Shown: piece by piece, positions 859-35,184 of the stretch
Numbering within the stretch: position 1 is the stretch's first letter
How the letters are laid out: each line of letters opens with the position of its first letter
NCBI GenBank assembly: GCA_947632355.1
Contig: CANROY010000001.1
Location: 2,040 to 66,039, forward strand
Source: an uncultured Bacilli bacterium
GTDB taxonomy: Bacteria; Bacillota_I; Bacilli_A; RF39; UBA660
Length of the DNA: 64,000 nucleotides
Direction: 5' to 3'
Made by a program: the position numbers and the translations under genes
The notes under the pieces: model-generated
What the model saw: the letters and a program-made list of their open reading frames with translations, nothing else
The model's database searches: none
Told to the model about the DNA's origin: nothing

Positions 859-1539
859 ATGAAAGAAAAGAAGAAAGAAAAAGTTTTATTAAGTGTACAA
901 AATGCAAGTTATAGATATAGTGATGCCGAATCAAAAGATGACTATGCATTAAAAAATGTAAGTTTTGATTTTGAAAGTGGAAAACTATATGCTATAAGAG
1001 GTCGAAGTGGTACAGGAAAAACAACTCTTTTATCCCTTATTAGTGGACTTGAGCGATGTACAGAAGGTGAAATTTTATTTGATGGTAAAAGTCTTAAGAA
1101 TATGAATTTAGATAAGTATCGTAATCGTGATATAGGAATTGTTTTTCAAAGTTATAATCTATTACCATTTATGACTGCTGCTGAAAATATCATTCTTTCT
1201 ATGGATGTGAGTGGTTTAAAAATCAAAAACAAAAAACAAAAAGCCATAGAACTTATGGAAAAAGTTGGTTTAAAAGAAACCTATGCCAATCGTAAAGTGT
1301 TAAGATTATCTGGTGGTGAACAACAAAGAGTTGCTATCGCAAGAAGTTTATCTTACAATCCAAAAATGATTATCGCCGATGAACCAACAGGAAATCTAGA
1401 TAAACAAACGGAAACAGAAATTTTAGAAATATTTAAAAAACTAGCCCACGAAGAAAATAAATGTGTTATTATTGTAACGCATTCCCAAAATGTATGTGAT
1501 ACTGTGGATGTCATATATGATTTAAAAAAGGTAGGATGA
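859..1539 (+). CDS. ABC transporter ATP-binding protein (MacB/LolD-like)
   Basis: Walker A GRSGTGKTTLLS, ABC signature LSGGEQQRVAIARSL, Walker B IIADEPTGNLD; RBS GAGAGG 6 nt upstream; TGA stop. Confidence 0.9.
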   Translation: MKEKKKEKVLLSVQNASYRYSDAESKDDYALKNVSFDFESGKLYAIRGRSGTGKTTLLSLISGLERCTEGEILFDGKSLKNMNLDKYRNRDIGIVFQSYNLLPFMTAAENIILSMDVSGLKIKNKKQKAIELMEKVGLKETYANRKVLRLSGGEQQRVAIARSLSYNPKMIIADEPTGNLDKQTETEILEIFKKLAHEENKCVIIVTHSQNVCDTVDVIYDLKKVG

Positions 1540-1542
1540 AAA

Positions 1543-1562
1543 GTTTATAAATCCTGCCTTTT
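1543..1562. repeat. 20-bp direct repeat GTTTATAAATCCTGCCTTTT (copy 1)
   Basis: Near-identical copy at 3044..3064; the two copies bracket the two minus-strand genes 1569..2947. Confidence 0.6.
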
Positions 1563-1568
1563 ACATTT

Positions 1569-2141
1569 TTACAAAATTTTACTTCTTTTATTCAATAAAA
1601 GTTCTCTAATTTCTTTCCAATTATCAACCCTAATTATATTTTGATTATCCAATTCTTCTTTTGTTAAGTCTTTGTTATGCCACGCAGTAAATAATATTTT
1701 AGTTTCTGCTCCCTCAATATTACTTATCTTATCATCTATTTTTATATCGCAATTAATAATAGACTTATCAGCAGTAAATATAAAATTTTTAGGATTAATA
1801 AAGTCTAATTGTTTATAGAGAAAATTGTATTTATTTTTTAGATTGGTACCTGCAAACTCCACTATTTCTCTCCAAATATAATCAGTACATATATAAATAG
1901 TATAATATTTACTCAATTCTTTTAATACATTATAGCAATCTGGCAAAAGTGTTGCATTTGCATACATATCTATATCTTTAAATTTACTAAAAAAATCTTC
2001 TTTCTTATCTCCTAAAATATCTTGAACATAATAATTTTTTATATTTTTATAATCCGGTATGTATCCTAAATAATCTTCTAATATTTTAGAAAAATTTCCA
2101 GAGGTTAATACACTATCCATATCTACCATTATTGATTTCAT
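1569..2141 (-). CDS. 5'(3')-deoxyribonucleotidase, HAD superfamily (NT5C/YorS-like)
   Basis: N-terminal DMDSVL HAD motif I; YTIYICTD; IDDKISNIEGAETKILFTAWHN matches the NT5C family C-terminal motifs. Confidence 0.7.
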   Translation of the reverse strand: MKSIMVDMDSVLTSGNFSKILEDYLGYIPDYKNIKNYYVQDILGDKKEDFFSKFKDIDMYANATLLPDCYNVLKELSKYYTIYICTDYIWREIVEFAGTNLKNKYNFLYKQLDFINPKNFIFTADKSIINCDIKIDDKISNIEGAETKILFTAWHNKDLTKEELDNQNIIRVDNWKEIRELLLNKRSKIL

Positions 2142-2149
2142 TGAATCAC

Positions 2150-2947
2150 CTACATTTTTCTTATTTTGTTTTCTAAAACTTTTGCATTATTATCTAACAA
2201 ACTTTTGCTTTCAAATAATTCTTTGTTAAATAAAAAGGGAGTAAATATTTTATTTTGGTCAAATTGAGGAATATTTGCTAAATCTTCCAACTTAATCCAT
2301 TCTAACGTTCCTTCTTCTGAAATAGTTTTTAAATTACCTTCAAATTCCTCTGCCGTATATACAAATATAATTCCTTCCTCCTTATCTTTCCAATAAGACA
2401 TACCTTGCAATCTAGGATTAAGTAATGTTAAACCCGTTTCTTCATAAAATTCTCTAATAATGCAATCTAAAGGTGATTCACCTTCTTCAAATTTACCACC
2501 AGGAGGAGCATAAACATGCCCCCACTTTTTGGTAAATTTAATCATTAATACTTTGTTATCCTTTTTTAAATAACAGGCAGTTGAATTAAGATGAGCAACT
2601 CTGTGCTTTTTAATAGAAAAAATCACACAACCATTTTCTTCAGATTCTTCTTTAGTATAAAAACCACTATCATAAGTATCTTGAACAATAGCATCAACAC
2701 TTTCATATCTATCTTTAAAATCTTCTTCATAATATTTAGAATAACAATCATACCAATTATCAAAAGTTTCTATTCCTTTAACATCAACAACAAATTCTTC
2801 ATCTAAATTAGGAAGTTTTAAAAATCTAATAGTATCTCCAACTCTTACTAATTTCCTTTTTTCATCATTAACTCTATATTCTCTTTTTTTCTTGCCAGAC
2901 TTTATGTCATTAAAACTAGACTCATAAAGTTTCATTATATGTTCCAT
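2150..2947 (-). CDS. NUDIX hydrolase with N-terminal ASCH-like domain
   Basis: Nudix box GGKFEEGESPLDCIIREFYEETGL (Gx5Ex7REuxEExGu); N-terminal ~110 aa beta-barrel-like ASCH-type region. Confidence 0.75.
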   Translation of the reverse strand: MEHIMKLYESSFNDIKSGKKKREYRVNDEKRKLVRVGDTIRFLKLPNLDEEFVVDVKGIETFDNWYDCYSKYYEEDFKDRYESVDAIVQDTYDSGFYTKEESEENGCVIFSIKKHRVAHLNSTACYLKKDNKVLMIKFTKKWGHVYAPPGGKFEEGESPLDCIIREFYEETGLTLLNPRLQGMSYWKDKEEGIIFVYTAEEFEGNLKTISEEGTLEWIKLEDLANIPQFDQNKIFTPFLFNKELFESKSLLDNNAKVLENKIRKM

Positions 2948-3043
2948 AGAATGCCTCCAACTAATAAAATTATACTATATTTAATCAAAACAACAACACT
3001 AAAATATGTAGTTAATTCTATAATATAAATAAAATCGATAACA

Positions 3044-3064
3044 GTTTTATAAATCCTGCCTTTT
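3044..3064. repeat. Direct repeat GTTTTATAAATCCTGCCTTTT (copy 2)
   Basis: Matches 1543..1562. Confidence 0.6.
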
Positions 3065-3111
3065 TTTTGAATTGCAACAAACTTATGTTATAATTTGTAA
3101 AAAAGTGGTGA

Positions 3112-3777
3112 ATGAATATGACTAAAGATATTAAAGAAACAAAAATTACTGAATTTTTAAATAAATATAGTTCTTTATACCCTGATTATGCAAAAAATGA
3201 ATTTAAAAATATACTGAATGGATATACAATAAACAATGATTTAATAAATCAAATATATTGTTACTTAAATTTAATTGATATAAAAAAATCTGATTATTAT
3301 ATTTTTTATAATTATCTAAAAAAGGATCAGTTTTTAAAGGATAATATGTTAGAAGTAGGATGTGGTGCCATTCCAATATTATCTTACATTATCTCTGAAA
3401 ATAATTATCAAATAACGGCTTTGGATAAAACCGTTGTTATTAAAGATTTTAAATTCCCAATTATTGAGCAAAAAATAGAGAATCATTTTAATTTTTCACA
3501 ATATAATAGTGTTGTTGCTTTTAGACCTTGTATGACAACAGAAATTATAATAAAAGAATGTTTAACAAATAAAATCCCATTTTGCATCTATTTATGTAAT
3601 TGTGCTTTATATCCACAAGAAGACTACCAACTATTTAATGAAAAGGATTGGTCAAATAAAAAATGGATTCAATATTTGGAAGATAGGATTAAGAAATATA
3701 ATATACATAATATGGAAATTAAAATAGACTACCAAACAAATTTATTTGATGAAATGCCAATTATATCCGCAAAATAA
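3112..3777 (+). CDS. Hypothetical protein (possible SAM-MTase-like Rossmann motif LEVGCGA)
   Basis: 221-aa ORF with upstream TTGAAT-16-TATAAT promoter and GTGGTG RBS; weak glycine-rich motif only. Confidence 0.45.
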   Translation: MNMTKDIKETKITEFLNKYSSLYPDYAKNEFKNILNGYTINNDLINQIYCYLNLIDIKKSDYYIFYNYLKKDQFLKDNMLEVGCGAIPILSYIISENNYQITALDKTVVIKDFKFPIIEQKIENHFNFSQYNSVVAFRPCMTTEIIIKECLTNKIPFCIYLCNCALYPQEDYQLFNEKDWSNKKWIQYLEDRIKKYNIHNMEIKIDYQTNLFDEMPIISAK

Positions 3778-3944: not shown

Positions 3945-5330
3945 ATGAAAGAACTTGATTTAGGAAAGGACAAAATTTCAAAACTATTAAAGAAATTTGC
4001 TATTCCCTGTGTCATTAGTATGATTGTTGCAGCACTTTATAACATTGTTGACCAAATCTTTATCGGTTGGAGTGATGCCGGTGCTTTTGGAAATGCCGCT
4101 ACCAATATTGTTTATCCTTTTACCGTGATTGCCCTTGCTTTTGCTCTCCTTATTGGAGATGGTGCTGCTGCTTTATTCAATCTATCTTTAGGTGCTAAGA
4201 ATAACAACCAAGCAAATAAATCTATTGGAAATGGTTTACTACTTTTAGTTGGTATTTCTTTTGTACTCACCATTCTTGGTCTTCTATTTCAAAACCCTAT
4301 CTTAAAAATTTTTGGAGGTAATCCAAACGAAGTTTTATGCTATGAATACGCAAAATCTTACTTACAAATTATTACGTATGGCCTACCGTTTTATATTATC
4401 GGTCAAGGGTTAAATGCATCCATTCGTAGTGATGGTAGTCCCAATTATGCAATGTTTGCTACTATGCTAGGAGCTATTACCAATATCATTTTAGACCCAA
4501 TCTTCATCTTTGTATTTCATATGGGAGTAAAAGGTGCAGCACTTGCAACCATTCTTGGTCAAATTTTAACATTCTTAGTAAGTATTCTCTATATAAGGAA
4601 AGCCAAATACTTTTCTATCAACCAACAAGCCTTAAAACTAGATAAAGAAATTTGTAAAAAAATACTTTCTTTAGGTCTTGCATCCTTGATTACGCAAATT
4701 GCCATTGTGATTATTATTGCTGTTGCGAATAACTTAGTAACACAATATGGCTATACAACTCTATCTTCAACAGGAAATCCTTATGGAGTCGTTATCCCAC
4801 TTGCAGTCATTGGAATTTGTATGAAAATATTTGGTATTGTTGTATCTATTGTCATTGGAGTTTCATTAGGTGGTATGCCAATCATTGGTTTTAATCGTGG
4901 GTCAGGAAATATAGAAAGAGTAAAAGAAACCATCAAATATATCCTTATCATAAATCTTTTGATTGGTTGCATTGCTTTTTTACTCTTTGAATTTTTTCCA
5001 ACGTTCATTATTAATCTATTTGGTAAAGGAAATTCTTTTGAATACTTAGAATACGCCCAATACTGTTTAAAAATTTTCTTAGGAGGAATTATTCTAACTT
5101 GCTTAGTAAAATCTTTATCTATTCTTTTACAATCAATGGGTTCTAGTTTTAAATCCACTCTACTTGCTTTATCAAGAGACGTTCTCTTTTTTGTACCAGC
5201 CATTTTATTACTAGCCAAAATAAGTGAAAGTGTTGTTACAATGTTATGGAGTGCTTTAATTGCCGATATTTTATCTTTCCTTTTAGGAATGATACTTTTA
5301 CTAAGTGAATTTAAAAAAATAGAAAAGTAA
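3945..5330 (+). CDS. MATE family efflux transporter
   Basis: 12-TM protein with MATE N-terminal signature (KLLKKFAIPCVISMIVAALYNIVDQIFIG); AAAGGAGG RBS 8 nt upstream of ATG 3945 (ORF track start 3915 lies inside the RBS). Confidence 0.85.
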   Translation: MKELDLGKDKISKLLKKFAIPCVISMIVAALYNIVDQIFIGWSDAGAFGNAATNIVYPFTVIALAFALLIGDGAAALFNLSLGAKNNNQANKSIGNGLLLLVGISFVLTILGLLFQNPILKIFGGNPNEVLCYEYAKSYLQIITYGLPFYIIGQGLNASIRSDGSPNYAMFATMLGAITNIILDPIFIFVFHMGVKGAALATILGQILTFLVSILYIRKAKYFSINQQALKLDKEICKKILSLGLASLITQIAIVIIIAVANNLVTQYGYTTLSSTGNPYGVVIPLAVIGICMKIFGIVVSIVIGVSLGGMPIIGFNRGSGNIERVKETIKYILIINLLIGCIAFLLFEFFPTFIINLFGKGNSFEYLEYAQYCLKIFLGGIILTCLVKSLSILLQSMGSSFKSTLLALSRDVLFFVPAILLLAKISESVVTMLWSALIADILSFLLGMILLLSEFKKIEK

Positions 5331-5335
5331 AAATT

Positions 5336-5368
5336 TTCTTACACAAAAAGAAAAACTTTGCTATAATG
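5336..5368 (+). promoter_or_regulatory. Promoter TTCTTACAC..TGcTATAAT (extended -10); paralogue of 3793..3823
   Basis: Near-identical architecture to the MATE promoter. Confidence 0.55.
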
Positions 5369-5394
5369 TTTTTGGCAAAGAATAGTAGTAAACG

Positions 5395-5462
5395 ACACAT
5401 GTAGAGCATCCTGCTCGTAAATCTGATTACGGAAACTAAGGATAACTCTATATGTGTTTTTT
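5395..5462 (+). terminator. Leader terminator/attenuator: long-range stem ACACATGTAGAG / CTCTATATGTGT enclosing inner hairpin CGTAA-ATCTGA-TTACG, then U6
   Basis: Complementary arms 5395-5406 / 5446-5457 followed by TTTTTT; inner hairpin plus A-rich tail GAAACTAAGGA resembles a preQ1-I-like layout (weak). Confidence 0.45.
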
Positions 5463-5490
5463 ATTGTCTAAAATAAGGAGGTGAAATGTT

Positions 5491-6033
5491 ATGCCATCCA
5501 ATAAAAAGGAAAGAGCAATTTTTGCTTTTATCACGGTTTTGATTACAGTACACGCTTATGTATTTTATAGTTTGTATGTCATAAATGGTAGTACTTTAAT
5601 GAATGCAACTGGAGAAAGTAGTGTTTTAATTGCCATTAACCATTTAGGTGGTGTGTATATGTTTGGGCGCTATTTACCCATTTGGGCTGTTGTTTTAACA
5701 GAATTTTGTTTTGCTTATTGTATGGAAATGCTAGTTGGTAGTCCTTTTTCCTTTAAAATGGCTTGTAAAAATTTTGATATCAAAAAAACAGACCCTGTTC
5801 AATTTGAAACAGCCGTTATTTGTGCAACGGTTGCAATAATGGTTCCTGTTATGAGTTTAATTGCAGCATTCTTATATTATCCATACTATGCAGGATTTCA
5901 TATTGTAACTTTACTTGCGAATTGGTTGAAATTAATTTGTTTTAATTTTCCTTTTGCTTATTTTTCTCAACTATTTTTTATTCAACCACTCGTAAGAACA
6001 ATCTTTAAATTCTTATTCAAAAAGAATAAGTAA
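5491..6033 (+). CDS. Small polytopic membrane protein (~5 TM), possible ECF-type S component/transporter
   Basis: 180 aa, hydrophobic helices; strong RBS AAGGAGGTG; preceded by structured leader. Confidence 0.6.
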   Translation: MPSNKKERAIFAFITVLITVHAYVFYSLYVINGSTLMNATGESSVLIAINHLGGVYMFGRYLPIWAVVLTEFCFAYCMEMLVGSPFSFKMACKNFDIKKTDPVQFETAVICATVAIMVPVMSLIAAFLYYPYYAGFHIVTLLANWLKLICFNFPFAYFSQLFFIQPLVRTIFKFLFKKNK

Positions 6034-6097: not shown

Positions 6098-6580
6098 ATG
6101 AATCAAAACAAATTAGAAACCATTTCAAATTTATTTGAAGGTAAAGAAATAAGAAGTATTTGGGATAGCGAAAAAGGAGACTATTACTTTAGTGTGGTAG
6201 ATGTAATATCCGTTTTAACAAATGCCAATATTCCTAGAAATTATTGGAGTGATTTAAAAAGAAAATTAGAAAAGGAAGGAAGTCAACTGCACGAAAATAT
6301 CGTGCAGTTGAAAATGAAAGCACAAGATGGAAAATTAAGAGGAACTGATACTTTAAACACTAAAGGAATATTTAGACTTATAGAATCAGTTCCAAGTCCT
6401 AAAGCAGAACCATTTAAATTATGGCTTGCTAATTTAGGTAGTGAGAGAGTAGATGAAGTCTTTGACCCAGAAATTGCTATTAATAGAGTCATTGACTATT
6501 TTAGAAAACGAGGATATAGCGATAAGTGGATTAAGACACATTTTCTTACCATCCTTCAAAAAGTAAAAGCAAATAGATAG
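6098..6580 (+). CDS. Bro-N domain / DinD-like DNA-damage-inducible protein
   Basis: N-terminal FEGKEIRSIWDSEKGDYYFSVVDVISVL resembles the Bro-N/DinD fold; RBS AGGAGG. Confidence 0.5.
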   Translation: MNQNKLETISNLFEGKEIRSIWDSEKGDYYFSVVDVISVLTNANIPRNYWSDLKRKLEKEGSQLHENIVQLKMKAQDGKLRGTDTLNTKGIFRLIESVPSPKAEPFKLWLANLGSERVDEVFDPEIAINRVIDYFRKRGYSDKWIKTHFLTILQKVKANR

Positions 6581-6680
6581 TAAAGATAGATTTGCAAAGC
6601 AAATGTTAGCATCAGTTGACAAATTTCCAACTCAAACAGGTAGATTGCAACCAAAAGAAACGATATAATTTAGGTGTGAG

Positions 6681-7340
6681 GTGAAAGATTTGAATCATTT
6701 AGGTGAAAGATTATTAGAATTAAGAAAAGAGAAAAAATTATCTCAAGAAGAAGTAGCAGACAAATTAAATGTTACAAGACAAACAATTTCAAAATGGGAA
6801 ACGGACCAAAGCACACCAGACTTTGATAAAATTGTTCCTTTATGTGAATTGTATGGTATTACTCCTAACGAATTATTTATTGAATTAAAAGAAAAGGAAC
6901 CTTCAAAAAAAGTGAAACCTATATTTGATTTTGAAGAAGAAATGAAAAAGAGTAATAAAAAAGCCAAAGGAATTGCCATAAGTATTCTACTTTATTTCAT
7001 ATCAATTGTATGGATTATGATTGCCATTCCTGTTTTAAATATGAATCCTATTGTTGCATCTGCCCTATTCTTGCTTATTTGTGGACTTGCGACCGGTATC
7101 ATTGTTTATGTATGTATTCGTTATAAAAAAATAAAAAATGACGAAGAAGAAACAGAAACAGAAAAATTAATCAATCAAATCTCGAATGTAGTTGCGATTA
7201 TCGTTTTAATTTTTTATTTAGTTATTAGTTTTAAAACAATGGCTTGGAATTTAACGTGGATTATATGGGTCATCTATGGATTATTTGAAGAAATCTTAAA
7301 ATTAATATTTATGCTTAGAGGTACGAAAGATGAAAAATAA
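6681..7340 (+). CDS. XRE-family HTH transcriptional regulator with C-terminal transmembrane segments
   Basis: LSQEEVADKLNVTRQTISKWE HTH; 3 C-terminal TM helices; GTG start after AGGTGTGAGG. Confidence 0.8.
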   Translation: MKDLNHLGERLLELRKEKKLSQEEVADKLNVTRQTISKWETDQSTPDFDKIVPLCELYGITPNELFIELKEKEPSKKVKPIFDFEEEMKKSNKKAKGIAISILLYFISIVWIMIAIPVLNMNPIVASALFLLICGLATGIIVYVCIRYKKIKNDEEETETEKLINQISNVVAIIVLIFYLVISFKTMAWNLTWIIWVIYGLFEEILKLIFMLRGTKDEK

Positions 7341-8217
7341 AAAATGGATTCTAACTTTAATTATTGTACTATCCATTCTTATGATTGGACTAACCGTATT
7401 TTATATTGGACTTATCCAAAACGGCTTTTCTTTGAAAGGATTGAAACTTGGATTACAAAATAGTGAAGAATTAATAGTAGATACGACCTATGAAGAAAAC
7501 TTTAAAAAGATTACTATTGATGCAACAACAAGTAATATTTTTATAAATCATTCCAATACAAATCAGATTACAACTAAAATTTATGGTGAAAAAGAAGATA
7601 CAAACGTTGATACAACCCTTGATACTTTAACGATTAAAACAAATGAAAAAAATTGTATAGGATTTTGTTTCAACCAAAAAGCCACCAAAATAGAAATAGA
7701 ACTACCAGAAGACTTTGATGGAACCATTACCATTCAAAATAAATATGGCAATATTTCTATCGATACATTTTTAAATGCTACAATGGATATAAAAGAAGAT
7801 TGTGGAGACGTAAAAATACTTGCAGGAAAAAGTATTAAAGTTGATAATAAATATGGAGATATAGAAATTAAAAATGCAAATGATGCAACCATTAATGAGG
7901 ATTGTGGAGACGTTACGATTTCTACTATCCAGGATGTAATAGTACAAAATAGTTATGGAGATATAGAAATTGAAACAGTAACGAATTCTCTTCATCTTGA
8001 AAACGATTGTGGTGATATTCAATTAAATAACATCAACTTAAAGAAGGATTCTTATATTAAAGATGATTATGGAGATATAGAGATAGGTTTAACAAACGAA
8101 CTATTTATTGATGCAAAAACAGATTTAGGAAAAGTAAGCATAAATAAGAATACGAACGAAGCCGATGTTACTTTAAAAATTCAAAATAATTGTGGAGATA
8201 TTGAAGTTGAGAACTAG
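7330..8217 (+). CDS. DUF4097-like putative adhesin/beta-helix repeat protein (YvlB-like), N-terminal TM
   Basis: Repeated DCGDV/YGDIEI modules; 11-nt overlap with the upstream XRE regulator (coupled operon). Confidence 0.7.
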   Translation: MKNKKWILTLIIVLSILMIGLTVFYIGLIQNGFSLKGLKLGLQNSEELIVDTTYEENFKKITIDATTSNIFINHSNTNQITTKIYGEKEDTNVDTTLDTLTIKTNEKNCIGFCFNQKATKIEIELPEDFDGTITIQNKYGNISIDTFLNATMDIKEDCGDVKILAGKSIKVDNKYGDIEIKNANDATINEDCGDVTISTIQDVIVQNSYGDIEIETVTNSLHLENDCGDIQLNNINLKKDSYIKDDYGDIEIGLTNELFIDAKTDLGKVSINKNTNEADVTLKIQNNCGDIEVEN

Positions 8218-8220
8218 CAA

Positions 8221-8247
8221 ATTCTACTTGGGATTTGCTTTTTTTAT
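8221..8247 (+). terminator. Rho-independent terminator
   Basis: GCAAAT-loop-ATTTGC followed by T7. Confidence 0.7.
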
Positions 8248-8406
8248 GTTATACTATTTACAGCATACTTATTAGACTCTCTTTTTGTCCTGTTCATTTT
8301 ATTTACTTATGGAATATAGAAAAATAATCGAAAAAAACAAAAGTAAACCTTTGGTATGTTTAAAAATTTATTAAAAATAGTATAGTTCTTCTTGAAAGGA
8401 GAAAAA

Positions 8407-9119
8407 ATGATGAATCAAGAACAAATTGGAAAATTTATTGCCCAACAAAGAAAAGTAAAAGAATTAACGCAAGAAGAACTAGCAGAAAAATAGGAATTAC
8501 CAAAAATGCTGTAAGTAAGTGGGAAAGAGGTTTATGCTTAATGGATATGTCCTTATTAAAACCACTTAGTGAACTTTTAGGTGTAACTATAAATGAACTA
8601 CTTGCTGGTGAAAAGATAGAAGAAAAAGATATTGAAAAAAAGAGCGAAGAAAATATAATAGATACAATTAATTATTCAAATAAAAAAGTATCTGAAAAAA
8701 ACAAATTAATTGCTAAAATTTTATTGTTCTTTGGATTAGGTTTAATATTCAGTGCTTTTTCCGTATTCCCTAGTGAAAGCAGTTGGGGTTCTATTTATTC
8801 TGTTATCGGTATAGTTATTTCTTTACTTGGTTTTACCATTCTAAATAAAGGAAAGACATTTAGAAAAAGATTACTACTAAATATAGGATATACGATTTTC
8901 ATTATCGCCCTATTACTTGTGTTAGATTATAGCAATGTAAAACTAAATCAACAAGCACCAAGATTTAGAATCAAAACAACTACAACAGGAAATGTTATCT
9001 ACTATGATACTCTTTTCTATGATGTATATAGATGTAACTTTGATACAGAAAACGAGTATTGGGTAATTGAAAAGAATAGCAAAAAATCCATTAGCGATTT
9101 AATAAACTATTGTAAATAA
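8407..9119 (+). pseudogene. XRE-family membrane-anchored regulator disrupted by a -1 frameshift in an A5 tract (8486-8490)
   Basis: N-terminal HTH fragment MMNQEQIGKFIAQQRKVKELTQEELAEK stops at 8491. One extra A would give in-frame AEKIGITKNAVSKWERGLCLMDMSLLKPL..., continuing into ORF 8541..9119 (HTH helix 3 plus TM tail). Confidence 0.65.
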
Positions 9120-25418: not shown

Positions 25419-26297
25419 TTGATTATAATAAATATTTTATCTTTTAGCAAGGGGGAATGTATATTGAAAACGAAAGAAATAAGATATTTAAAAGATGAGT
25501 ATGCAAAAAAACTATTAAAGGAAGAAGATTGTAAGGAATATGTTGCTAGTATTATTGCTTCTGTCTTAGATTTACCAAAAGACTATGTAGTAAATAACCT
25601 AAAACTATTGAATAATGAAATTAATATCAATGAACATGTAAAGAACCAAGAAGCCGATGCTGTTTTTGATTTAGATGAACATATCGTAAATATTGAGATT
25701 AATTATAACAATAGTATAGAGTTGCAAACTAAAAATACTGGCTATATTGCACAACTCTATCTAACTCAAATTAAACCTGGAGAAAACTATCCCAAAATTA
25801 AACCGATTGTCCAAATAAACCTGAACAACTATGATGTATTTAATAAAAATGAATTTATCTATCATAGTGTTGTAATGGAAACAAAACATCACATCATTCG
25901 TAACAAAGATATTGAAATCTTTGATATAAATATAGATTTATTAAATGAAATCGATTATAATGAAATTGAGAAATTAAATGAAAGGGATTTAAGATGGCTT
26001 TTATACATCTTTGTATGTGGAGATAAAAGGCTACGAGAAGAGGTTTATGGGGAGAGTGAAATGATGAAGAAGGTAAATGACAAAATAGATAACTATCAAG
26101 CATTTCTAAATCAATGGTTATACTATGACAAAGAATATCTTGATAATTGTGGTTTTGAAGAGTTAGGTAGACAAAAAGCAAAAAAAGAAACAGCAAAGAA
26201 ACTCTTACAAATGAAACTAGGAACTGCCGAACAAATAGCAGAAGCAACAGGTTTAACACTAGATGAAATAGAAGATTTAAAAAAGGAAAAAGATTAA
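25419..26297 (+). CDS. Rpn-family recombination-promoting nuclease/putative transposase (PD-(D/E)XK, YhgA-like); start probably TTG at 25464
   Basis: Paralogue of 41704..42534 (identical C-terminal TAKKLLQMKLGT.EQIAEATGLTLDEIEDLKKEKD); RBS AAGGGGGA before TTG 25464. Confidence 0.75.
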   Translation: MIIINILSFSKGECILKTKEIRYLKDEYAKKLLKEEDCKEYVASIIASVLDLPKDYVVNNLKLLNNEININEHVKNQEADAVFDLDEHIVNIEINYNNSIELQTKNTGYIAQLYLTQIKPGENYPKIKPIVQINLNNYDVFNKNEFIYHSVVMETKHHIIRNKDIEIFDINIDLLNEIDYNEIEKLNERDLRWLLYIFVCGDKRLREEVYGESEMMKKVNDKIDNYQAFLNQWLYYDKEYLDNCGFEELGRQKAKKETAKKLLQMKLGTAEQIAEATGLTLDEIEDLKKEKD

Positions 26298-28517: not shown

Positions 28518-29057
28518 CTAAAGTCCTCTAATAAATATTTGACCACTTATTGCTTTTCCCATATCACCACTTTGGTCTTCACTTGTATTTTGATATGTAA
28601 TCGTTAATTTATAATTCTTTGTTTCACCATTTTTTACGGTAACTGAATTTTTACTTAAATCAGCACTAGCCTGAGTACCACTTGGAAACTGTCCATCACC
28701 AATTTGTTGATTTTCCTCAGTTAATACGTAAGTAATATCTTCTGGATGAGTAAAGTCATTTTTTAAATTCAATACCGCAATATAAAAACTCAAATCAGGT
28801 CCATTATTCGTAATTGAAAATGTTTTTTCAAATGTATCTCCAGGTATCATTGTTACAGTAAGAGCACCATCATCTTTTAATGTTGTTTCTACTTTTGCTG
28901 TTACGTTATTGACTTCAACGGTATCACCTTCAGTGTTTGTTTTTGCAGTATAAAAAGCATAACTTGCTGCAGATATTGCTGCTATAAATACTATCACTGC
29001 TACTATTGATATAATAAGAGTTTTTTTATTGTCTGACATATAATCACCCATTCTCAT
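28518..29057 (-). CDS. TasA/camelysin-family secreted protein with SipW-cognate-type signal peptide
   Basis: Signal ...AAISAASYAFYTAKTN; IPGDTFEKTFSITNNGPDLSFYIAV matches the TasA KPGDKLTKDFQFENNGSL region; C-terminal DQSGDMGKAIS motif shared with 32601..33485. Confidence 0.65.
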   Translation of the reverse strand: MRMGDYMSDNKKTLIISIVAVIVFIAAISAASYAFYTAKTNTEGDTVEVNNVTAKVETTLKDDGALTVTMIPGDTFEKTFSITNNGPDLSFYIAVLNLKNDFTHPEDITYVLTEENQQIGDGQFPSGTQASADLSKNSVTVKNGETKNYKLTITYQNTSEDQSGDMGKAISGQIFIRGL

Positions 29058-29208: not shown

Positions 29209-29541
29209 TTAATTTTGTTTATGTAATATTTCACTATGACTACCTGTATTAATTAATAAGAGTATTATTTCATCATCTAAATACTTGTATATTAGTAACC
29301 AATCAGGTTCTATATGGCAATCTCGACAATCTTTAAATCGTTTATCATTATATAAAGAATGGTCTTTGTATTTTGCATCAAGCAATTCTTTATTCGCTAA
29401 TTTTTCAATAACTAGTTTTAATTTATTTATATCTTTCCCCTGTTTCAATATTTTTTTATAATTCTTTTTAAAATCATTTGAATACTTAATTTTATATTTT
29501 GTTTTTAAATCAAAATTAGTCTTCACTATCCAAAGCCTCAA
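29209..29541 (-). CDS. yafQ: Type II toxin YafQ/RelE family (start possibly GTG ~29526)
   Basis: KIKYSNDFKKNYKKILKQGKDINKL..YKDHSL...CRDCHIEPDWLLIYK matches YafQ motifs. Confidence 0.8.
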   Translation of the reverse strand: MRLWIVKTNFDLKTKYKIKYSNDFKKNYKKILKQGKDINKLKLVIEKLANKELLDAKYKDHSLYNDKRFKDCRDCHIEPDWLLIYKYLDDEIILLLINTGSHSEILHKQN

Positions 29542-29836
29542 ATAATTCTTTTATAGTATTATAGCTTTCATATTTTTCAGGGTGTTTTTCCATATTTTTA
29601 AGTTCTTTTGCCATAGCATCTAGTTCTTTTTTTGAAAAATATTTAGAAATATTATTTTCTTCTGGTGAAAGTGCAATTTCAAATGGAATACGCTTTTTCA
29701 TAATAACTTGTTTGATTGTCATATTTATTAATCCACTTAAAGAAACACCCAACTTTTGTAAGATTTTTGTGGCTTGTTCTTTATCTTTTTTATCAATTTG
29801 AACACTAATTATAGTATTAGTACTTGCCATAAACAT
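29516..29836 (-). CDS. dinJ: Type II antitoxin DinJ/RelB family
   Basis: Upstream of and overlapping the yafQ-like toxin; DinJ-like N-terminus TNTIISVQIDKKDKEQATKILQKLGVSLS. Confidence 0.8.
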   Translation of the reverse strand: MFMASTNTIISVQIDKKDKEQATKILQKLGVSLSGLINMTIKQVIMKKRIPFEIALSPEENNISKYFSKKELDAMAKELKNMEKHPEKYESYNTIKELFEALDSED

Positions 29837-30134
29837 ACTTCCTTTCTATATAATAATATCATTAATTCATATACTTTTCAATAATTTTTATATAATATTT
29901 ATATTAATATATGATAATTTATTGCAAATAATACAAAAAATAATGAAATATATAGAAATATATTTAATAAAATATCTAGTAAAATAAAAAATTTATCTTT
30001 ACCTATATAAAGAAATGAATAAAAACATAAATGGTAATGGTTAAAATGCTAATGGCAAACTTTTTTTATTAAAAATAGCATAAAAAAATAAATAGAGTAA
30101 AATCTATTCATCTTGGATTTTAAATATTTTAGTC

Positions 30135-30945
30135 TTAATCTGCAGCAAGAGTAGTATAACCTGAACCTGCAGCAACATCTAATTTAACAGATATATCCTT
30201 ACCACTATCTTTAGATGTTTGATCAGTTTGTGCATTTGGATATTTTACTACTAAATAATATACTTTTGAACTTTCTCCATCTTTAGTATTTAAAGTTCTT
30301 CCACCTAAATTATTTTGTTTAATTTTTGTTTTGGCCTCTTTCAAAGGATCACTAGTTAAAGTACCCTCTTCTTCACTGTACTTAATGCTATTATCAGTAC
30401 TTTGAGTATTTTTGTCAATTTTTTGGCTTTCTTGTCCATTTTTCAAATCTCCATAAGCTATCAATTCACCATTAGCACCTTGAACAGCACTTCATATAGA
30501 TTCTGCATCACAACATTCTCCCGTATTATAAATATCACTAGTATTTCCTTGATCTGCATACCAATAATATATATTTGGTCCAACCGTTTGTTCTTTTAAT
30601 GAACAAGTTGTTATTTTATCAAATCCACCAGCATCTGTTGCAACAGATAAATCACCAATCTTAGATTTTATCATCCATAATTCCCACTCTAAATCAGTAT
30701 TTGTTAAATTGGTATAAGTGATTTTTAAATTAAAAGTTCCTTTATAATCATTTGCATCAGTACGTTCTTGTTTCGAAATTGTAGCTGTTGCTTCATAGAT
30801 TCCTAATCCTCCGGGATAATCTAACATATTTAATACTTCACCTGTACTAGTAAAGTTTAAATTTGCTCCATTCATTTTTTGAGTAGTTGTATTAGCTGAA
30901 CTACTTGCTCCCTCAGTTTGAGTTGATGCTACAAAGTATGCGAAA
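30135..30945 (-). pseudogene. 5'-truncated, promoterless, nonsense-containing mosaic duplicate of the TasA-like gene 32601..33485
   Basis: 30563-30945 is ~99% identical to 33027-33410 but the match stops exactly at the FAYF signal-peptide motif (no signal, start or promoter). In-frame TGA at 30489-30491 (AESI*SAVQG). The 3' half (30135-30560) is only ~70% identical, giving a diverged C-terminal domain. Confidence 0.7.
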
Positions 30946-31058
30946 TTTATAATATTTATTTTGGAAAATAAATTTAAAAAATTTATATTTTATTTTCCTA
31001 CAGGAAAATATATTGACTTTTTTGCAGCTTTATTTTATTATGTAAATGGTGATATTAT

Positions 31059-32258
31059 ATGCTTAAAAGAGAAAATTATCTAGAAAAAATAAGAGAATTT
31101 TATTCATCTGACATTATTAAAGTCATAATTGGTATGAGAAGATGTGGTAAATCCGTATTATTAAAACAAATAATTGAAGAAATAAAAGACAGTGGAATTA
31201 ACAATCAACATATTATATACATAAATTTTGAAGATGTTTCTTATTCTTCAATTCAAGATTATAAAAATTTAAACAATTTTATAAAAGATAAAATAGTAGA
31301 TAACAAAAAATATTACTTGTTTTTTGATGAAATTCAATTTGTAAATGAATGGGAAAAAGCAATTAACTCTTTTAAAGCTACTTTAAACGTTTCTATTTTT
31401 ATAACGGGTTCCAACTCAAAACTATTATCGAGTGAACTTGCAACCCTTCTCTCCGGCAGATATGTAAGTTTTAAAATTAATCCCTTTTCATTCAAAGAAA
31501 TAGTTAAATTAAAAAATTTAACAGATCCAAAAGAAATAGAAGATGCTTTTAATGACTACTTAATGTGGGGTGGTATGCCTCAAAGATTTGAATATCAATC
31601 AGAAGAAGCGAGAAATAATTACTTGATGGATGTTTTCAATTCAATTATATTAAAGGATATAATAAAAAGAAATAATATCTCAAATGTTACATTATTTGAA
31701 AGAGTAATGGAATATTTAGTTACCAATCCATCTCAAACATTTTCTCCTAAAAACATGTTAAATGAGTTTGAAAAGGAAAAAATACCTATATCAACAAAAA
31801 CAGTATATGAATGTTTAGACTATGCATTATCAGCGATGCTATTTTCAAAAGTATCTTTATATGATATAAGAGGGAAAAAGATACTTTCTAGAAAAGACAA
31901 GTATTATTTAACGGATTTAGGATTAGGCCAAATTCTAAATACAAACAAAAAAACTCAATATGGAGCTTATTTAGAGAATATTGTCTATAATGAATTAATT
32001 GTAAGAGGTTATAATGTAAGTATCGGTAATAATAATGGAAAAGAAATTGATTTTGTAGCTACAAAGCATAATCAAAAAGAATATTATCAAGTAACATTTA
32101 CTTTAGCTGAAAAAACCTGTGAAGAAAGAGAATTTGGAGCTTATGAATCTATTAAAGATAACTATCTTAAGTACGTAATTTCAACTGATAAACTTGATTA
32201 TTCTCAAAATGGAATTATTCATAAAAATATAATTGATTGGTTATTAGAAGAAGACTAG
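31059..32258 (+). CDS. AAA+ ATPase with C-terminal DUF4143 domain
   Basis: Walker A GMRRCGKS, Walker B LFFDEIQ; typical ~400-aa ATPase (DUF4143) architecture. Confidence 0.75.
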   Translation: MLKRENYLEKIREFYSSDIIKVIIGMRRCGKSVLLKQIIEEIKDSGINNQHIIYINFEDVSYSSIQDYKNLNNFIKDKIVDNKKYYLFFDEIQFVNEWEKAINSFKATLNVSIFITGSNSKLLSSELATLLSGRYVSFKINPFSFKEIVKLKNLTDPKEIEDAFNDYLMWGGMPQRFEYQSEEARNNYLMDVFNSIILKDIIKRNNISNVTLFERVMEYLVTNPSQTFSPKNMLNEFEKEKIPISTKTVYECLDYALSAMLFSKVSLYDIRGKKILSRKDKYYLTDLGLGQILNTNKKTQYGAYLENIVYNELIVRGYNVSIGNNNGKEIDFVATKHNQKEYYQVTFTLAEKTCEEREFGAYESIKDNYLKYVISTDKLDYSQNGIIHKNIIDWLLEED

Positions 32259-32600
32259 AAATAGTTTTCTTTTTAATTAATATCTTTAATTGCCATTTAA
32301 ATAACAATATAGTGCATTTTTAAATTAAAATGTATTAATGTACCCAAATGAAGCTAAGCATGTTCAAAATTGATAAAAATGGGTAATAAAAGAAAATAGA
32401 AAATAATCTTTTTTATAAAAAAGTGAATAAAAACGCGAAAGGCAATCATCAAAAGATCTAATGATGATTGCCATTTTTCATTATATATATTAATTTTTTT
32501 AAAAATAAAATCAAAACTTATGCATTCTTATTTCTTCATTAAAAAAACTATTGGTTTCTTCCAATAGTTCTCTTCGATTTTAACTTTGTTTTGATTCTTA

Positions 32601-33485
32601 TTAATCTTCAGGTGTATATAATACTGAATTTCCTTCTCCATCAATTTCAAGTTTAACACTAATTGCTTTTCCAGCATCGGTAGATTGGTCATCTTTATTA
32701 TTTGGATATTTTACTACTAAGTAGTATACTTTAGAATCTTCACCTGTAGTAGTATTTAAAGTTCTTCCACCTAATTGATTACTAGTAATTCCCTCTTTTT
32801 CTGACTTTATAGGGTCACTACTATCACTAAGAGTTTCTCCAAACTTAATTCCTGATTCATCTCCATTAGTAGAACTACTAGTAATAGCTTTATCTGTTTG
32901 TCCATGTTTTAAATCTCCATAGGCAATTAATGAACCACTAGCATCTTTAACAGCATTTCTGATTGCTTCCGCATCACAACGTTCTCCTGCATTATAATTA
33001 TCATTTGGATCGCTAGCATCTGCATACCAATAATATGTATTTGGTCCAACAGTTTGTTCTTTTAATGAACAAGTTGTTATTTTATCAAATCCACCAACAT
33101 CTGTTGCAACAGATAAATCACCAATCTTAGATTTTATCATCCATAATTCCCACTCTAAATCAGTATTTGTTAAATTGGTATAAGTGATTTTTAAATTAAA
33201 AGTTCCTTTATAATCATTTGCATCAGTACGTTCTTGTTTCGAAATTGTAGCTGTTGCTTCATAGATTCCTAATCCTCCGGGATAATCTAACATATTTAAT
33301 ACTTCACCTGTACTAGTAAAGTTTAAATTTGCTCCATTCATTTTTTGAGTAGTTGTATTAGCTGAACTACCTGCTCCCTCAGTTTGAGTTGATGCTACAA
33401 AGTATGCAAAGGTTGCTCCTACAACTGATACTAATAAAGTAGCGATTGCTATTACTGTTAGTAATATTGTGTTTCTTTTTTCCAT
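32601..33485 (-). CDS. TasA/camelysin-like secreted protein with SipW-cognate class signal peptide (VVGATFAYF)
   Basis: N-terminal TM plus GATFAYF motif characteristic of SipW-processed proteins; paralogous to 28518..29057 and to the pseudogene copy 30135..30945. Confidence 0.65.
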   Translation of the reverse strand: MEKRNTILLTVIAIATLLVSVVGATFAYFVASTQTEGAGSSANTTTQKMNGANLNFTSTGEVLNMLDYPGGLGIYEATATISKQERTDANDYKGTFNLKITYTNLTNTDLEWELWMIKSKIGDLSVATDVGGFDKITTCSLKEQTVGPNTYYWYADASDPNDNYNAGERCDAEAIRNAVKDASGSLIAYGDLKHGQTDKAITSSSTNGDESGIKFGETLSDSSDPIKSEKEGITSNQLGGRTLNTTTGEDSKVYYLVVKYPNNKDDQSTDAGKAISVKLEIDGEGNSVLYTPED

Positions 33486-33697
33486 AATATTTTATATCCT
33501 CCTTACAATAAAAATCTTATCAAATTAAATGGTTTTATGCAATACCTTTTTTGAATATTTTATGAATTTTATGCTTTTTTACATATTTTTGGTTCTTTTT
33601 CACTCTATACTTTTAAAATTGTGGATGAGTTCTAATTACACATATATTATTTCAATTTGAAGTTTCATTTTAAGGAGCTTCAAAATTTTATTATCAC

Positions 33698-33725
33698 TTT
33701 TTTGGTTCCAATTTTGAACCAAAAA
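33698..33725. repeat. Palindromic element, family B (TTTTTGGTTC-CAATTTT-GAACCAAAAA)
   Basis: Perfect 10-bp arms; member of the 33.7-35.1 kb palindrome array. Confidence 0.7.
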
Positions 33726-33738
33726 TCAATATACTATT

Positions 33739-34614
33739 TTATGACTTTTTACTTTCTATTTTTTCTAACAATGACTCTTTTACAATTTCATCTTCTAATA
33801 AATTGATAGAAAATGTTTTTTCTCCAATATGATTTAAAGAAGTTCCACAATGGTAGATAATTTCTTTATCTAATATAAAATAACGGTCATGGAATGTATT
33901 ATCATAAATTACTTTTAGATTATGATATTGTCGATTATACTTTTCTATATCAAGTTCGTGTAATAAACTGCTTTCTTTTACAATTAACGTTACTTCTATA
34001 TTTAATTCTTTTATATAATCTAATATAGTTTTATCGGCGTAACCATCTATGATTACAAGTTCTTTTTTAGCACTTTTAAAGATATCAACTACTTTTGAAT
34101 AAGCATCATAGATTTGACCATTAAAATAAATTTCATTCGTTTTTTTCTTTTCTTCAAATTTGGAAAATGACTCTTCTAATAAATTTATCCTTTTATTATC
34201 TTCTATGACTAAATTATTAATATATTTTTGTTCTATTAAATTTGTACTTATATATTTTTTCATTGCTACAAAGGCATCCATAATTCTGATACTGACTTCG
34301 GTTGCAATTTTTGATTTTAATATTGTAGCAAGCATAGCAACGCCTTGTTCAGTAAAAACTCTACTATTATATCTTCTACCACCATATTGTTTTAAACTTG
34401 AGGTCGCAATTTACGACCTCAAGTTTTCTTCTTCTATATTATTTAAAATCCAAGAAAATCTTTCAGGAAATTTCTCAATATTTCTATATACTGCTTCATT
34501 AATTCTCTTGGTTTCAACTTGATAAAGCCTTGCTAAATCACTATCGAGCATTACTTGCTTTCCCCTTATTTCATAAATTAAATTTTCTACTTTTTCTTTT
34601 GTTATTTCGTTCAT
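33739..34614 (-). pseudogene. ORF6N-domain (KilA-N-like antirepressor family) gene inactivated by a CAA-to-TAA nonsense mutation at 34411-34413
   Basis: N-terminal IYEIRGKQVMLDSDLARLYQVETKRINEAVYRNIEKFPERF (ORF6N). Same frame continues past the stop (NLRS*IATSSLKQYGGRRYNSRVFTEQGVAMLATIL...) into ORF 33739..34335. Confidence 0.7.
34394..34426. repeat. Palindromic element, family A, inside the ORF6N gene (CTTGAGGTCG-caattta-CGACCTCAAG); encodes NLRS*IATSS
   Basis: 10-bp perfect arms. The C-to-T change that creates the stop is also the only mismatch to a full 13+1+13 palindrome. Confidence 0.75.
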
Positions 34615-34634
34615 AACTACTTATCTCTTTCTAT

Positions 34635-34656
34635 TTTTTGGTCCCAAACTGGAACC
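34635..34656. repeat. Palindromic element, family B, degenerate (TTGGTCCCAAACTGGAACC)
   Basis: One arm mismatch relative to 34822..34851. Confidence 0.5.
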
Positions 34657-34698
34657 TTAGAATTAGATATAATAACTTTCTAATTCCATCAATTGTTT

Positions 34699-34731
34699 CA
34701 ACTTGAAGTCACAAATTGGGACTTCAAGTTT
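34699..34731. repeat. Palindromic element, family A (CTTGAAGTC-acaaattgg-GACTTCAAG)
   Basis: Minus-strand frame reads NLKSQFVTSS followed by a stop. Confidence 0.75.
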
Positions 34732-34760
34732 ACTTATTGCAAATTATATAACGTTACTTA

Positions 34761-34790
34761 CACTTAAGGTCGAAAATTTTGGTCTTAAAG
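34761..34790. repeat. Degenerate A-like element (CTTAAGGTCGAAAATTTTGGTCTTAAAG)
   Basis: Partial arm similarity to family A. Confidence 0.4.
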
Positions 34791-34821
34791 AATTCCATTC
34801 ATAATCTCTACCCACTTTTCT

Positions 34822-34851
34822 ATTTTTTTGGTCCCAGTTTGGGACCAAAAC
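34822..34851. repeat. Palindromic element, family B (TTTTGGTCCCA-gtt-TGGGACCAAAA)
   Basis: Perfect 11-bp arms with T/A-run flanks. Confidence 0.75.
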
Positions 34852-34880
34852 TTATTAGTTTTTAATTTCATCAAACATTT

Positions 34881-34914
34881 CATCTTGAAGTCGCAATTTG
34901 CGACTTCAAGTTTT
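34881..34914. repeat. Palindromic element, family A (CTTGAAGTCGCAA-t-TTGCGACTTCAAG)
   Basis: Perfect 13-bp arms; minus-strand frame reads NLKSQIATSR*. Confidence 0.8.
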
Positions 34915-34928
34915 ATTTTTCTATCTTC

Positions 34929-34959
34929 TTTTTTTTGGTCACAAATTGTGACCAAAAAA
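34929..34959. repeat. Palindromic element, family B (TTTTTTGGTCACAA-a-TTGTGACCAAAAAA)
   Basis: Perfect 14-bp arms; core GTCACAAATTGTGAC. Confidence 0.8.
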
Positions 34960-34974
34960 CAACTATTAGTCTAT

Positions 34975-35001
34975 TTCAAGGTTTCATTTTGAAACCTTGA
35001 A
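34975..35001. repeat. Palindromic element, hybrid/C type (TTCAAGGTTTCA-ttt-TGAAACCTTGAA)
   Basis: Perfect 12-bp arms. Confidence 0.7.
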
Positions 35002-35043
35002 ACTTTGCATTCTTTTTTATAAAGTGAGATGCAAATTTAACAC

Positions 35044-35077
35044 TAACTTGAAGTTCCAATTTGGAACTTCAAGTTTA
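35044..35077. repeat. Palindromic element, family A (CTTGAAGTTCCAA-t-TTGGAACTTCAAG)
   Basis: Perfect 13-bp arms; minus-strand frame reads NLKFQIGTSS*. Confidence 0.8.
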
Positions 35078-35184
35078 CTCTTTGCAATTTCTAAAACATA
35101 ATAATACTTCCTTTCTTAAAGTTGCTATAATAACAAAAAAAGTTTAAATTTTTTGTCGATTTAAGGACATAAAAAAAAGAAGAA

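Follow-up and report, generated by a model that had tools for sequence, protein, structure and literature searches.

A 5'-cut copy as probable recombination partner of a remote TasA relative in uncultured gut Bacilli

A classic route by which pathogens change their coat is recombination of the gene expressed for a surface protein with beheaded copies kept in store. Silent cassettes are used for gene conversion in pilE/pilS of Neisseria, in the vlhA pseudogene reservoir of Mycoplasma synoviae and in MgPa/MgPar of M. genitalium. Site-specific inversion serves the surface-protein genes vsa of M. pulmonis, vsp of M. bovis and vpma of M. agalactiae, and displaced "orphan" modules are found downstream of Rhs/CdiA toxin genes. 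To our knowledge, recombination of an expressed gene with beheaded copies has been described neither for TasA-like, SipW-dependent fibre proteins nor for the uncultured gut Bacilli considered here, and a literature search yielded no published report of the family or of the gene arrangement. We here describe a gene and its 5'-cut copy, named A (32601..33485, minus strand) and B (30135..30947, minus strand), in a window of 64,000 nucleotides (nt) from an uncultured Bacilli bacterium (RF39; UBA660). The window, with a G+C content of 29%, covers positions 2,040 to 66,039 of contig CANROY010000001.1 (GCA_947632355.1), which stems from a metagenome assembly. What is new is the exchange with 5'-cut stored copies, known elsewhere, in a TasA-like family of uncultured gut Bacilli.

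With pilE/pilS, vlhA and MgPa/MgPar the system has in common one promoter-bearing gene with a conserved 5' end, 5'-cut copies without start codon, exchange between short conserved blocks, alleles that are mosaic or alternative between strains, and cassettes that keep open frames. Unlike these, the window has one cassette, which is overwritten and bears a stop codon, and both protein family and hosts (uncultured rabbit-gut Bacilli) differ from theirs. We consider it reasonably probable that A and B are recombination partners, that B stores an alternative allele for a hypervariable protein that is secreted, and that exchange is rare, on the timescale of strain divergence, without a fast programmed switch. 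Frequent programmed switching is possible but improbable.

Gene A, copy B and the tract they share

Comparison contigs are numbered L; those of the sister strains come from other rabbit-gut metagenome samples and were found via cluster mates of the window proteins. The sequences of A and B fall into two classes, called a-type and b-type. The features at the two copies are:

32601..33485, minus strand: gene A, the expression-site copy with an ATG start; full-length secreted protein of 294 amino acids (aa), a-type core and a-type tail
33405..33485, minus strand: signal-peptide coding block of A (MEKRNTILLTVIAIATLLVSVVGATFA), invariant or nearly so family-wide
33018..33410, minus strand: A side of the 393-nt tract, probable donor; the other four B contigs differ in the core here
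32400..32600, minus strand: 3' flank of A, with a distant homology to 29950..30134, which flanks B on the 3' side
30135..30947, minus strand: copy B, a 5'-cut paralogue; mosaic of an a-type core, a diverged segment b' and a b-type tail
30552..30944, minus strand: B side of the tract, the a-type core in B; its 3' end lies within a 24-nt block (YYWYAD codons) common to a and b
30400..30551, minus strand: segment b' of B, which adjoins the tract at its 3' end and has 15 private substitutions within 150 nt
30492..30494, minus strand: TGA in the frame of B, seen in the window lineage only (L094 and L096 included), where A and all b-type copies read AGA
30945..31058: junction spacer, from the cut end of B to the ATPase start, 98% identical in sister strains
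31013..31041, plus strand: promoter-like site of the ATPase gene, TTGACT-17-TATTAT, within the junction spacer
31059..32258, plus strand: AAA_14/DUF4143 ATPase gene (Pfam), a match to the PADLOC candidate defence gene PDC-S01 (E 1e-148); it points away from B and towards A

A would be the copy that is expressed, and its product a secreted beta sandwich with a SipW-type signal peptide. The ATG of A is preceded by a strong ribosome-binding site (AAGGAGG at 33504..33498) and the N-terminus reads MEKRNTILLTVIAIATLLVSVVGATFAYF. Cleavage is predicted after TFA, the position being borrowed from TasA, and the AlphaFold model of the protein is an all-beta sandwich (pLDDT 83).

B is probably an old paralogue, the promoter, start codon and signal peptide of which would have been replaced by the upstream region of the ATPase gene; with such a 5' end it could not make a secreted product. 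As a first-pass annotation of the window had noticed, B starts at the FAYF codons and has neither start codon nor signal peptide. The sequence upstream of 30945 is unrelated to A, and the frame that stays open upstream of B (NINFLNLFSKINIINFAYF) contains no ATG, GTG or TTG and no ribosome-binding site. A promoter scan is uninformative at this G+C content (37 sites versus 31.7 expected), so that the absence of a promoter from B is unreadable from sequence.

As to the origin of such a copy, the Rhs/CdiA orphan modules are alike in that the main gene is followed downstream by a 5'-cut copy whose start falls within a conserved region; by this analogy, the arrangement is consistent with an incoming allele that recombined in the conserved 5' block and pushed the old body downstream. 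Unlike there, the displaced part is a whole mature protein and no C-terminal tip, and an immunity gene is missing; the likeness bears on origin, not on function.

The near-identity of A and B had been put at about 380 bp (30563-30945). It is confirmed with shifted limits: in a local alignment, A 33410..33018 and B 30944..30552 agree in 388 of 393 nt (98.7%), including an uninterrupted stretch of about 270 identical nt. The match starts at TT(T/C)GCATACTTTGTAGCATC, i.e., at the F-A-Y-F-V-A codons. The divergence of the 3' half was also seen correctly. Beyond the tract A and B are about 72% identical overall (locally 55-80%), with many indels, and a weak but significant homology extends beyond the stop codons for about 200 nt (local score 47 versus 26.9 +/- 3.8 for shuffled sequence).

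In a metagenome-assembled window such a tract could, of course, be an artefact, A reads having been collapsed into B, and related contigs do break or cross at repeats (L094 starts at 30562, L091 takes an odd path). However, the five single-nucleotide polymorphisms (SNPs) that separate the A and B copies are reproduced in the right context by independent assemblies. L011 joins the cut junction to 206 nt of B-type core, and L096 joins B-type core (VATDAGG, GPNIYY) to the TGA-bearing b' tail. All contigs of the window type (L011, L012, L094, L095 and L096; 99.8-100% identical) reproduce the junction, the B-specific SNPs and the TGA. Because of this repeated recovery we regard an artefact as extremely improbable.

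The in-frame TGA reported earlier for B, read from 30494 to 30492, is a true stop under table 11. It may be called a nonsense codon because the window genome, by its reading frames, uses the standard code: 49 of 49 long open reading frames (ORFs) are intact, Trp encoded by TGG accounts for a normal 0.71% of residues, and TGA terminates three ORFs. A reading of TGA as Trp (code 4) is ruled out by the same figures. The changes in segment b' comprise 6 synonymous and 9 non-synonymous ones, the TGA included, versus 3 changes in the adjacent 280 nt; this cluster could stem from a third donor allele, from error-prone repair where the tract ends or from local decay. For the B tail, the ratio of non-synonymous to synonymous substitution (dN/dS) between strains is 0.39, calculated from 18 changes only.

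Two alleles in sister strains

The first-pass annotation had proposed to look for the cut copy in close relatives and to compare the expressed gene between strains. The cut copy is present, with an identical junction, in four further sister-strain contigs (L010, L091, L092 and L093), which constitute a second type. Their identity to the window amounts to 98.7% in the ATPase gene, 98.2% in the junction spacer, 99% in the 3' flank of B, 99.5% in RelB-YafQ and 95.9% in the B tail, versus 72.9% in the B core. In all four, the B frame is open throughout its 271 codons, with AGA where the window has TGA and with a b-type core.

Conversion between the two copies is evident from this comparison, and its direction in the window can be read: because the four sister contigs hold a b-type core at B on near-identical flanks, the tract was most likely copied from A to B in the window lineage. 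It extends from the end of homology at the cut to the 24-nt YYWYAD block common to a and b. The process would be ordinary homologous gene conversion between A and B, anchored in short stretches that are identical between the diverged alleles, presumably 20 nt that encode FAYFVAS at the cut end and the 24-nt YYWYAD block. The copying of these 393 nt from A to B would be the most recent event in the window lineage, and B would also have acquired its nonsense codon there. The direction, from the expressed gene to the cut copy, is the reverse of that of a pilS-type donor. A scan of JGI metagenomes for the 20-nt anchor returned a single contig, which is unrelated.

The expression-site gene differs between strains and is of B-type sequence in some; both checks came out on the side of the first-pass annotation. 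In L090, the promoter and signal region of A (75 signal-coding nt, 100% identical to the window) is joined directly to a b-type core; in L010 and L091, a b-like tail (AEGSGYTTLAE*) is joined to A's own 3' flank. At the L090 join, a and b share 20 nt only, versus an assembler k of 55, and since the shared stretch is far shorter than k the local joins are considered real. The a/b switch at A begins within 21 nt of the start of the homology to B and ends at the stop codon. In the sister strains, the part of the expression-site gene that encodes the mature protein would be entirely of the b type, as held by B. Judged from these contigs, the species carries two expressed allele classes, about 72% identical to each other, on backgrounds that are 98-99.5% identical, and B holds one of the two.

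The 3' flanks of A and B are homologous as well. Their identity of about 70% matches the divergence of the a and b bodies and indicates, as far as alignments go, an old duplication of gene plus flank. It fits a and b as the native sequences of A and B, respectively, and the b-type gene at the expression site would then have arisen by a transfer from B to A. That B has been a donor to A, and that it is kept as a reservoir for surface variation, we infer.

Family identity, cut copies and arrays

The first-pass annotation had related A to TasA and camelysin (CalY; PF12389, TIGR04088) and had assigned it a SipW-type signal. A direct membership could not be established. The A protein matches nothing in Pfam at E <= 0.1, PF12389 (Peptidase_M73) included, and has no direct match in NCBIfam, PADLOC or PDB sequences. 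Searches of Pfam and NCBIfam with A, its N-terminus and both halves of B gave no TasA, camelysin or TIGR04088 match, and a profile of the A family found nothing at E <= 10 in all PDB sequences. The relation is an indirect one. Peptidase_M73 of Pfam matches 11 of 50 short family members at E <= 0.01; two of them, P0108 and P0118, pass the threshold with 28.0 and 25.2 bits (cut-off 22.5). In hhalign, the long subfamily of A aligns to the short members with a probability of 100% (E 1.9e-47). Because it does so, and because some of the short members match PF12389, A is on the evidence of profiles a remote, transitive relative of the TasA/camelysin superfamily, no direct member, with a SipW-type signal peptide.

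As regards the signal, the GATFAYF motif is seen by eye in A, and the homologue P0031, the N-terminus of which is near-identical to that of A, passes TIGR04088 with 21.5 bits (cut-off 19 bits; P0108 reaches 18.3). A itself or its first 60 residues are not reported by this model even at E <= 10. A resembles TasA/camelysin in the end of the signal, which reads GATFA-YF in A and GGGTFA-YF in camelysin with the cut at the hyphen, and possibly in the all-beta sandwich of the mature part, which for A is a predicted structure and in TasA is of the jellyroll type (PDB 5OF1, 8AUR). In TasA, SipW cuts directly before the residues that form the fibre donor strand (PMC9674648). By analogy, B would begin two codons before the mature N-terminus and would hold the whole mature protein and nothing else. 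A SipW-like gene was not found within the window, in agreement with the first-pass annotation, either by a motif scan or by tblastn with nine SipW-type ORFs of relatives (all E > 1). Distant relatives have, at 10 loci, a gene for an archaeal-type signal peptidase (TIGR02228; 112.9 and 93.5 bits) within 2-6 kb of a family gene.

Homologues of A comprise about 35 full-length proteins at 30-62% identity and several hundred shorter relatives, nearly all from uncultured Bacilli genomes of the rabbit gut ("Lapin") and from other gut metagenomes. Conserved are the first 31 residues, which are essentially invariant, YPGG, two invariant cysteines and KYYYLVVKYPN. In the alignments (L038, L036, L034, L026), the 31 residues stay invariant across proteins that are otherwise about 30% identical. 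The underlying block of about 100 nt is 100% nucleotide-identical within one genome among copies with very different bodies, and its G+C content is, by eye, visibly above that of the flanks. Such conservation far exceeds the needs of secretion alone.

Our census comprises 141 non-redundant family copies in 78 loci; for internal stops, 148 family regions were checked. Copies without a usable 5' end number 39 of the 141, and their bodies, like that of B in the sister strains, are intact apart from window-type B, which is broken by its TGA; 5'-cut copies with an otherwise intact variable coding sequence, as in silent-cassette systems, are thus seen across the family. Fifteen of these 39 are cut inside the signal-coding region; cut copies stand three in tandem behind one full gene in L001, and there are three each in L031 and L053. 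The other 24 have kept the hydrophobic region and lack the start codon. An internal stop occurs in 1 of the 148 regions, window-type B only. Cut copies with one common junction have diverged to 30-40% amino-acid identity, and their frames are still open, which argues against neutral decay of the cut copies in the family. The dN/dS ratios among cassettes (0.3-1.0) are uninformative, synonymous sites being saturated (dS 0.8-1.0).

The copies at positions 2241, 3861 and 7459 of L038, compared with those at 6031 and 9631, and others in L036 and L045 differ from their full neighbours only at the start codon: ATG has become AAG, or GATGG has become TAAGG, with ribosome-binding site and signal region intact. 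These variants could be single-site OFF states, which recombination in the flanking identical sequence would be able to reverse.

A second exchange is documented in another species. Between L003 and L098, the body of a cut copy has been replaced by that of the full gene (99.8%), and the swap is bounded exactly by identical blocks of 44 nt and 45 nt, with flanks 100% and 97% identical. L003 further contains a duplicated segment of about 2.1 kb (984..3126 and 6561..8703, 5.6 kb apart) upstream of the family genes; its genes encode proteins of 243, 40 and 383 aa, and the 383-aa product has a CBM_4_9 domain.

In other genomes, as in the window, family arrays adjoin tex. They are interleaved with AbiEi/AbiEii pairs and with DUF4143/AAA_14 ATPase genes, which lie within the arrays at:

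L038, 6163..7356
L036, 967..2157 and 4445..5632
L060, 1192..2391
L046, 6695..7897

The ATPase genes of L038 and L036 are bracketed by inverted family 5' blocks of 133-209 nt (90-99% identical), and the segments are, from their layout, potentially invertible. The related genomes here resemble vsa, vsp and vpma: copies alternate in orientation, the identical 5' block of about 100 nt comprises ribosome-binding site and signal peptide, and only some copies have a start codon. In contrast to these systems, the inverted repeats bracket ATPase genes, no inversion is seen across three samples, and a recombinase gene was not recognised next to the arrays, neither at the window locus nor among the ORFs of the L038 array (family copies, AbiEi/AbiEii, ATPase and tex; Pfam was run on a subset only). 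A and B of the window are in direct orientation; as direct repeats they do not have the inverted copies with an adjacent recombinase that characterise an inversion shufflon.

In L031 (5109..9621), L033 (5004..9846) and L045 (4555..8979) the array is continued by genes for a short member of the family, a protein of about 950 aa and a SipW-type peptidase, a conserved trio that resembles the tapA-sipW-tasA operon. The L033 protein (928 aa) has a cadherin-like domain and, like those of L031 and L045, a FAY-type N-terminal motif. The peptidase was assigned by TIGR02228 for the L045 ORF; the L033 ORF has no Pfam match at E 0.001. A FemAB gene lies near the trio, which suggests that these Bacilli have a cell wall.

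One may extend the scheme to the whole family, which would then practise recombination-driven variation of a TasA-like surface fibre: one or more start-competent genes and intact cassettes without start or signal next to tex, the identical signal block as anchor, ATPase genes in segments with inverted blocks, and A and B of the window as the minimal, two-copy version after an exchange. We put this forward as rather doubtful.

For the window itself, a number of observations weigh against the explanation we favour. The sister-strain contigs have a coverage of 2-3x, and the long-range paths across the repeat of about 800 nt, in L090 (an apparent single gene without ATPase) and in L091, may be assembler cross-paths. 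An alternative history is equally short: the a allele would have been imported into A from another strain, and B would never have been a donor. Divergence between strains is unusually high in the first 45 nt of the 3' flank of A, where 11 positions differ, and neither form resembles the flank of B. Both haplotypes are identical at the consensus level across three to five samples each, and the nonsense codon of B is fixed in the window lineage (at least three samples). In both events with a readable direction, the window tract and the swap in the second species, the cut copy was the recipient. Recent conversion tracts are absent from the tandem paralogues in L001 and L003, and the L038-type array is stable, with an identical arrangement in all three samples.

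Part of this would suit a simpler view, which the first-pass annotation had mentioned as its alternative: B as a decaying remnant of a tandem duplicate, cut by the arrival of the ATPase gene, the tract as incidental concerted evolution, and the a/b difference as a result of inter-strain recombination. The fixed TGA together with the 15 private substitutions of b', the readable direction, the presence of one cut copy only at the window locus and the haplotypes that are stable across samples speak for it, as does the 3' flank of A, which as a whole is only 90% identical between strains and suggests an imported tract. However, B of the sister strains is a fully open frame behind the same junction, the a/b switch at A keeps to the limits of the homology to B and to the stop codon, and the beheaded copies so common in the family are never disrupted save in window-type B, however far they have diverged. 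Simple decay is disfavoured because beheaded but intact copies recur across the family, and we consider the remnant view unlikely, the TGA of the window copy notwithstanding.

The opposite extreme would be a dedicated system of the pilE/pilS or vlhA kind, frequently switching, with B as a one-way silent donor at a high rate within a clone. A promoter-bearing gene with a conserved 5' end beside a promoterless copy that begins inside the conserved region, two expressed allele classes that match the sequence stored in B, and copies without start or signal but with identical 5' blocks throughout the family are what such a system would display. Yet the cassette is single, carries a nonsense codon and has itself been converted, whereas classical silent loci stay unchanged. 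Moreover, consensus variation is absent among three to five samples per haplotype and among the three of the L038 array, the ORFs of which include no recognised recombinase gene. We therefore judge frequent switching of this kind quite improbable. The silent donor cassette proposed in the first-pass annotation thus stands as far as A and B exchange sequence and B-type alleles occupy the expression site in some strains; the readable tract from A to B and the stable haplotypes do not conform to it. Overall, the observation is borne out, its interpretation only in part: rare exchange between A and B, with B storing an alternative allele, is the reading we retain.

Neighbouring genes and the meaning of stored copies

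The further genes that had been named near the two copies, i.e., the DUF4143 ATPase gene between them, a third family member and a DinJ-YafQ pair, were all confirmed by Pfam and pairwise comparison. The latter two are:

28518..29057, minus strand: third, distant family member of 179 aa, next to tex (pairwise versus A, E 1e-7)
29209..29836, minus strand: RelB/DinJ-type antitoxin and YafQ toxin pair (Pfam), between B and the 179-aa gene

The 179-aa protein and A have in common an N-terminal signal-like region and the C-terminal motif Y.L.I.Y.N..DQ..GK; versus Peptidase_M73 it stays below the threshold (E 0.015; 15.5 bits, cut-off 22.5). Just beyond tex, at 25419..26297 (plus strand), there is an Rpn-family PD-(D/E)XK gene of the "recombination-promoting nuclease/putative transposase" type (TIGR01784; 53.2 bits, cut-off 52.1), and a PDDEXK_2 gene lies close to a family member in L006.

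On the other side of A, an ORF6N-domain gene (33739..34614, minus strand; PADLOC candidate PDC-S05) is interrupted by a TAA in frame (34413..34411). This TAA occupies the loop of a perfect palindrome, AACTTGAGGTCG-TAAATT-GCGACCTCAAGTT, which is read NLRS*IATSS; ORF6N proteins presumably have Gln (CAA) at this position as a rule. The gene is either a nonsense pseudogene or something odder. Three further copies of the palindrome, which measures about 31 nt, are found at 34700, 34882 and 35045 in the intergenic region upstream of the ORF6N gene, and their arms co-vary. A second palindrome, TTTTGGTCCCA...TGGGACCAAAA (33698, 34636, 34824 and 34931), alternates with the first within 33690..35100 of the window. 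Operators or repeat elements are possible identities of both.

If the stored copies are used, several features of these bacteria would become understandable. The nucleotide-level conservation of the signal-peptide coding block, beyond what secretion demands, would be explained, and the widespread DUF4143 ATPases would have a first genomic context. The strain pairs found here make the idea of stored variants directly testable with existing rabbit-gut read sets. Commensal gut bacteria would vary a matrix or fibre protein, perhaps under the pressure of phages or of host antibodies; toxin-antitoxin and candidate defence genes stand among the copies of the arrays.

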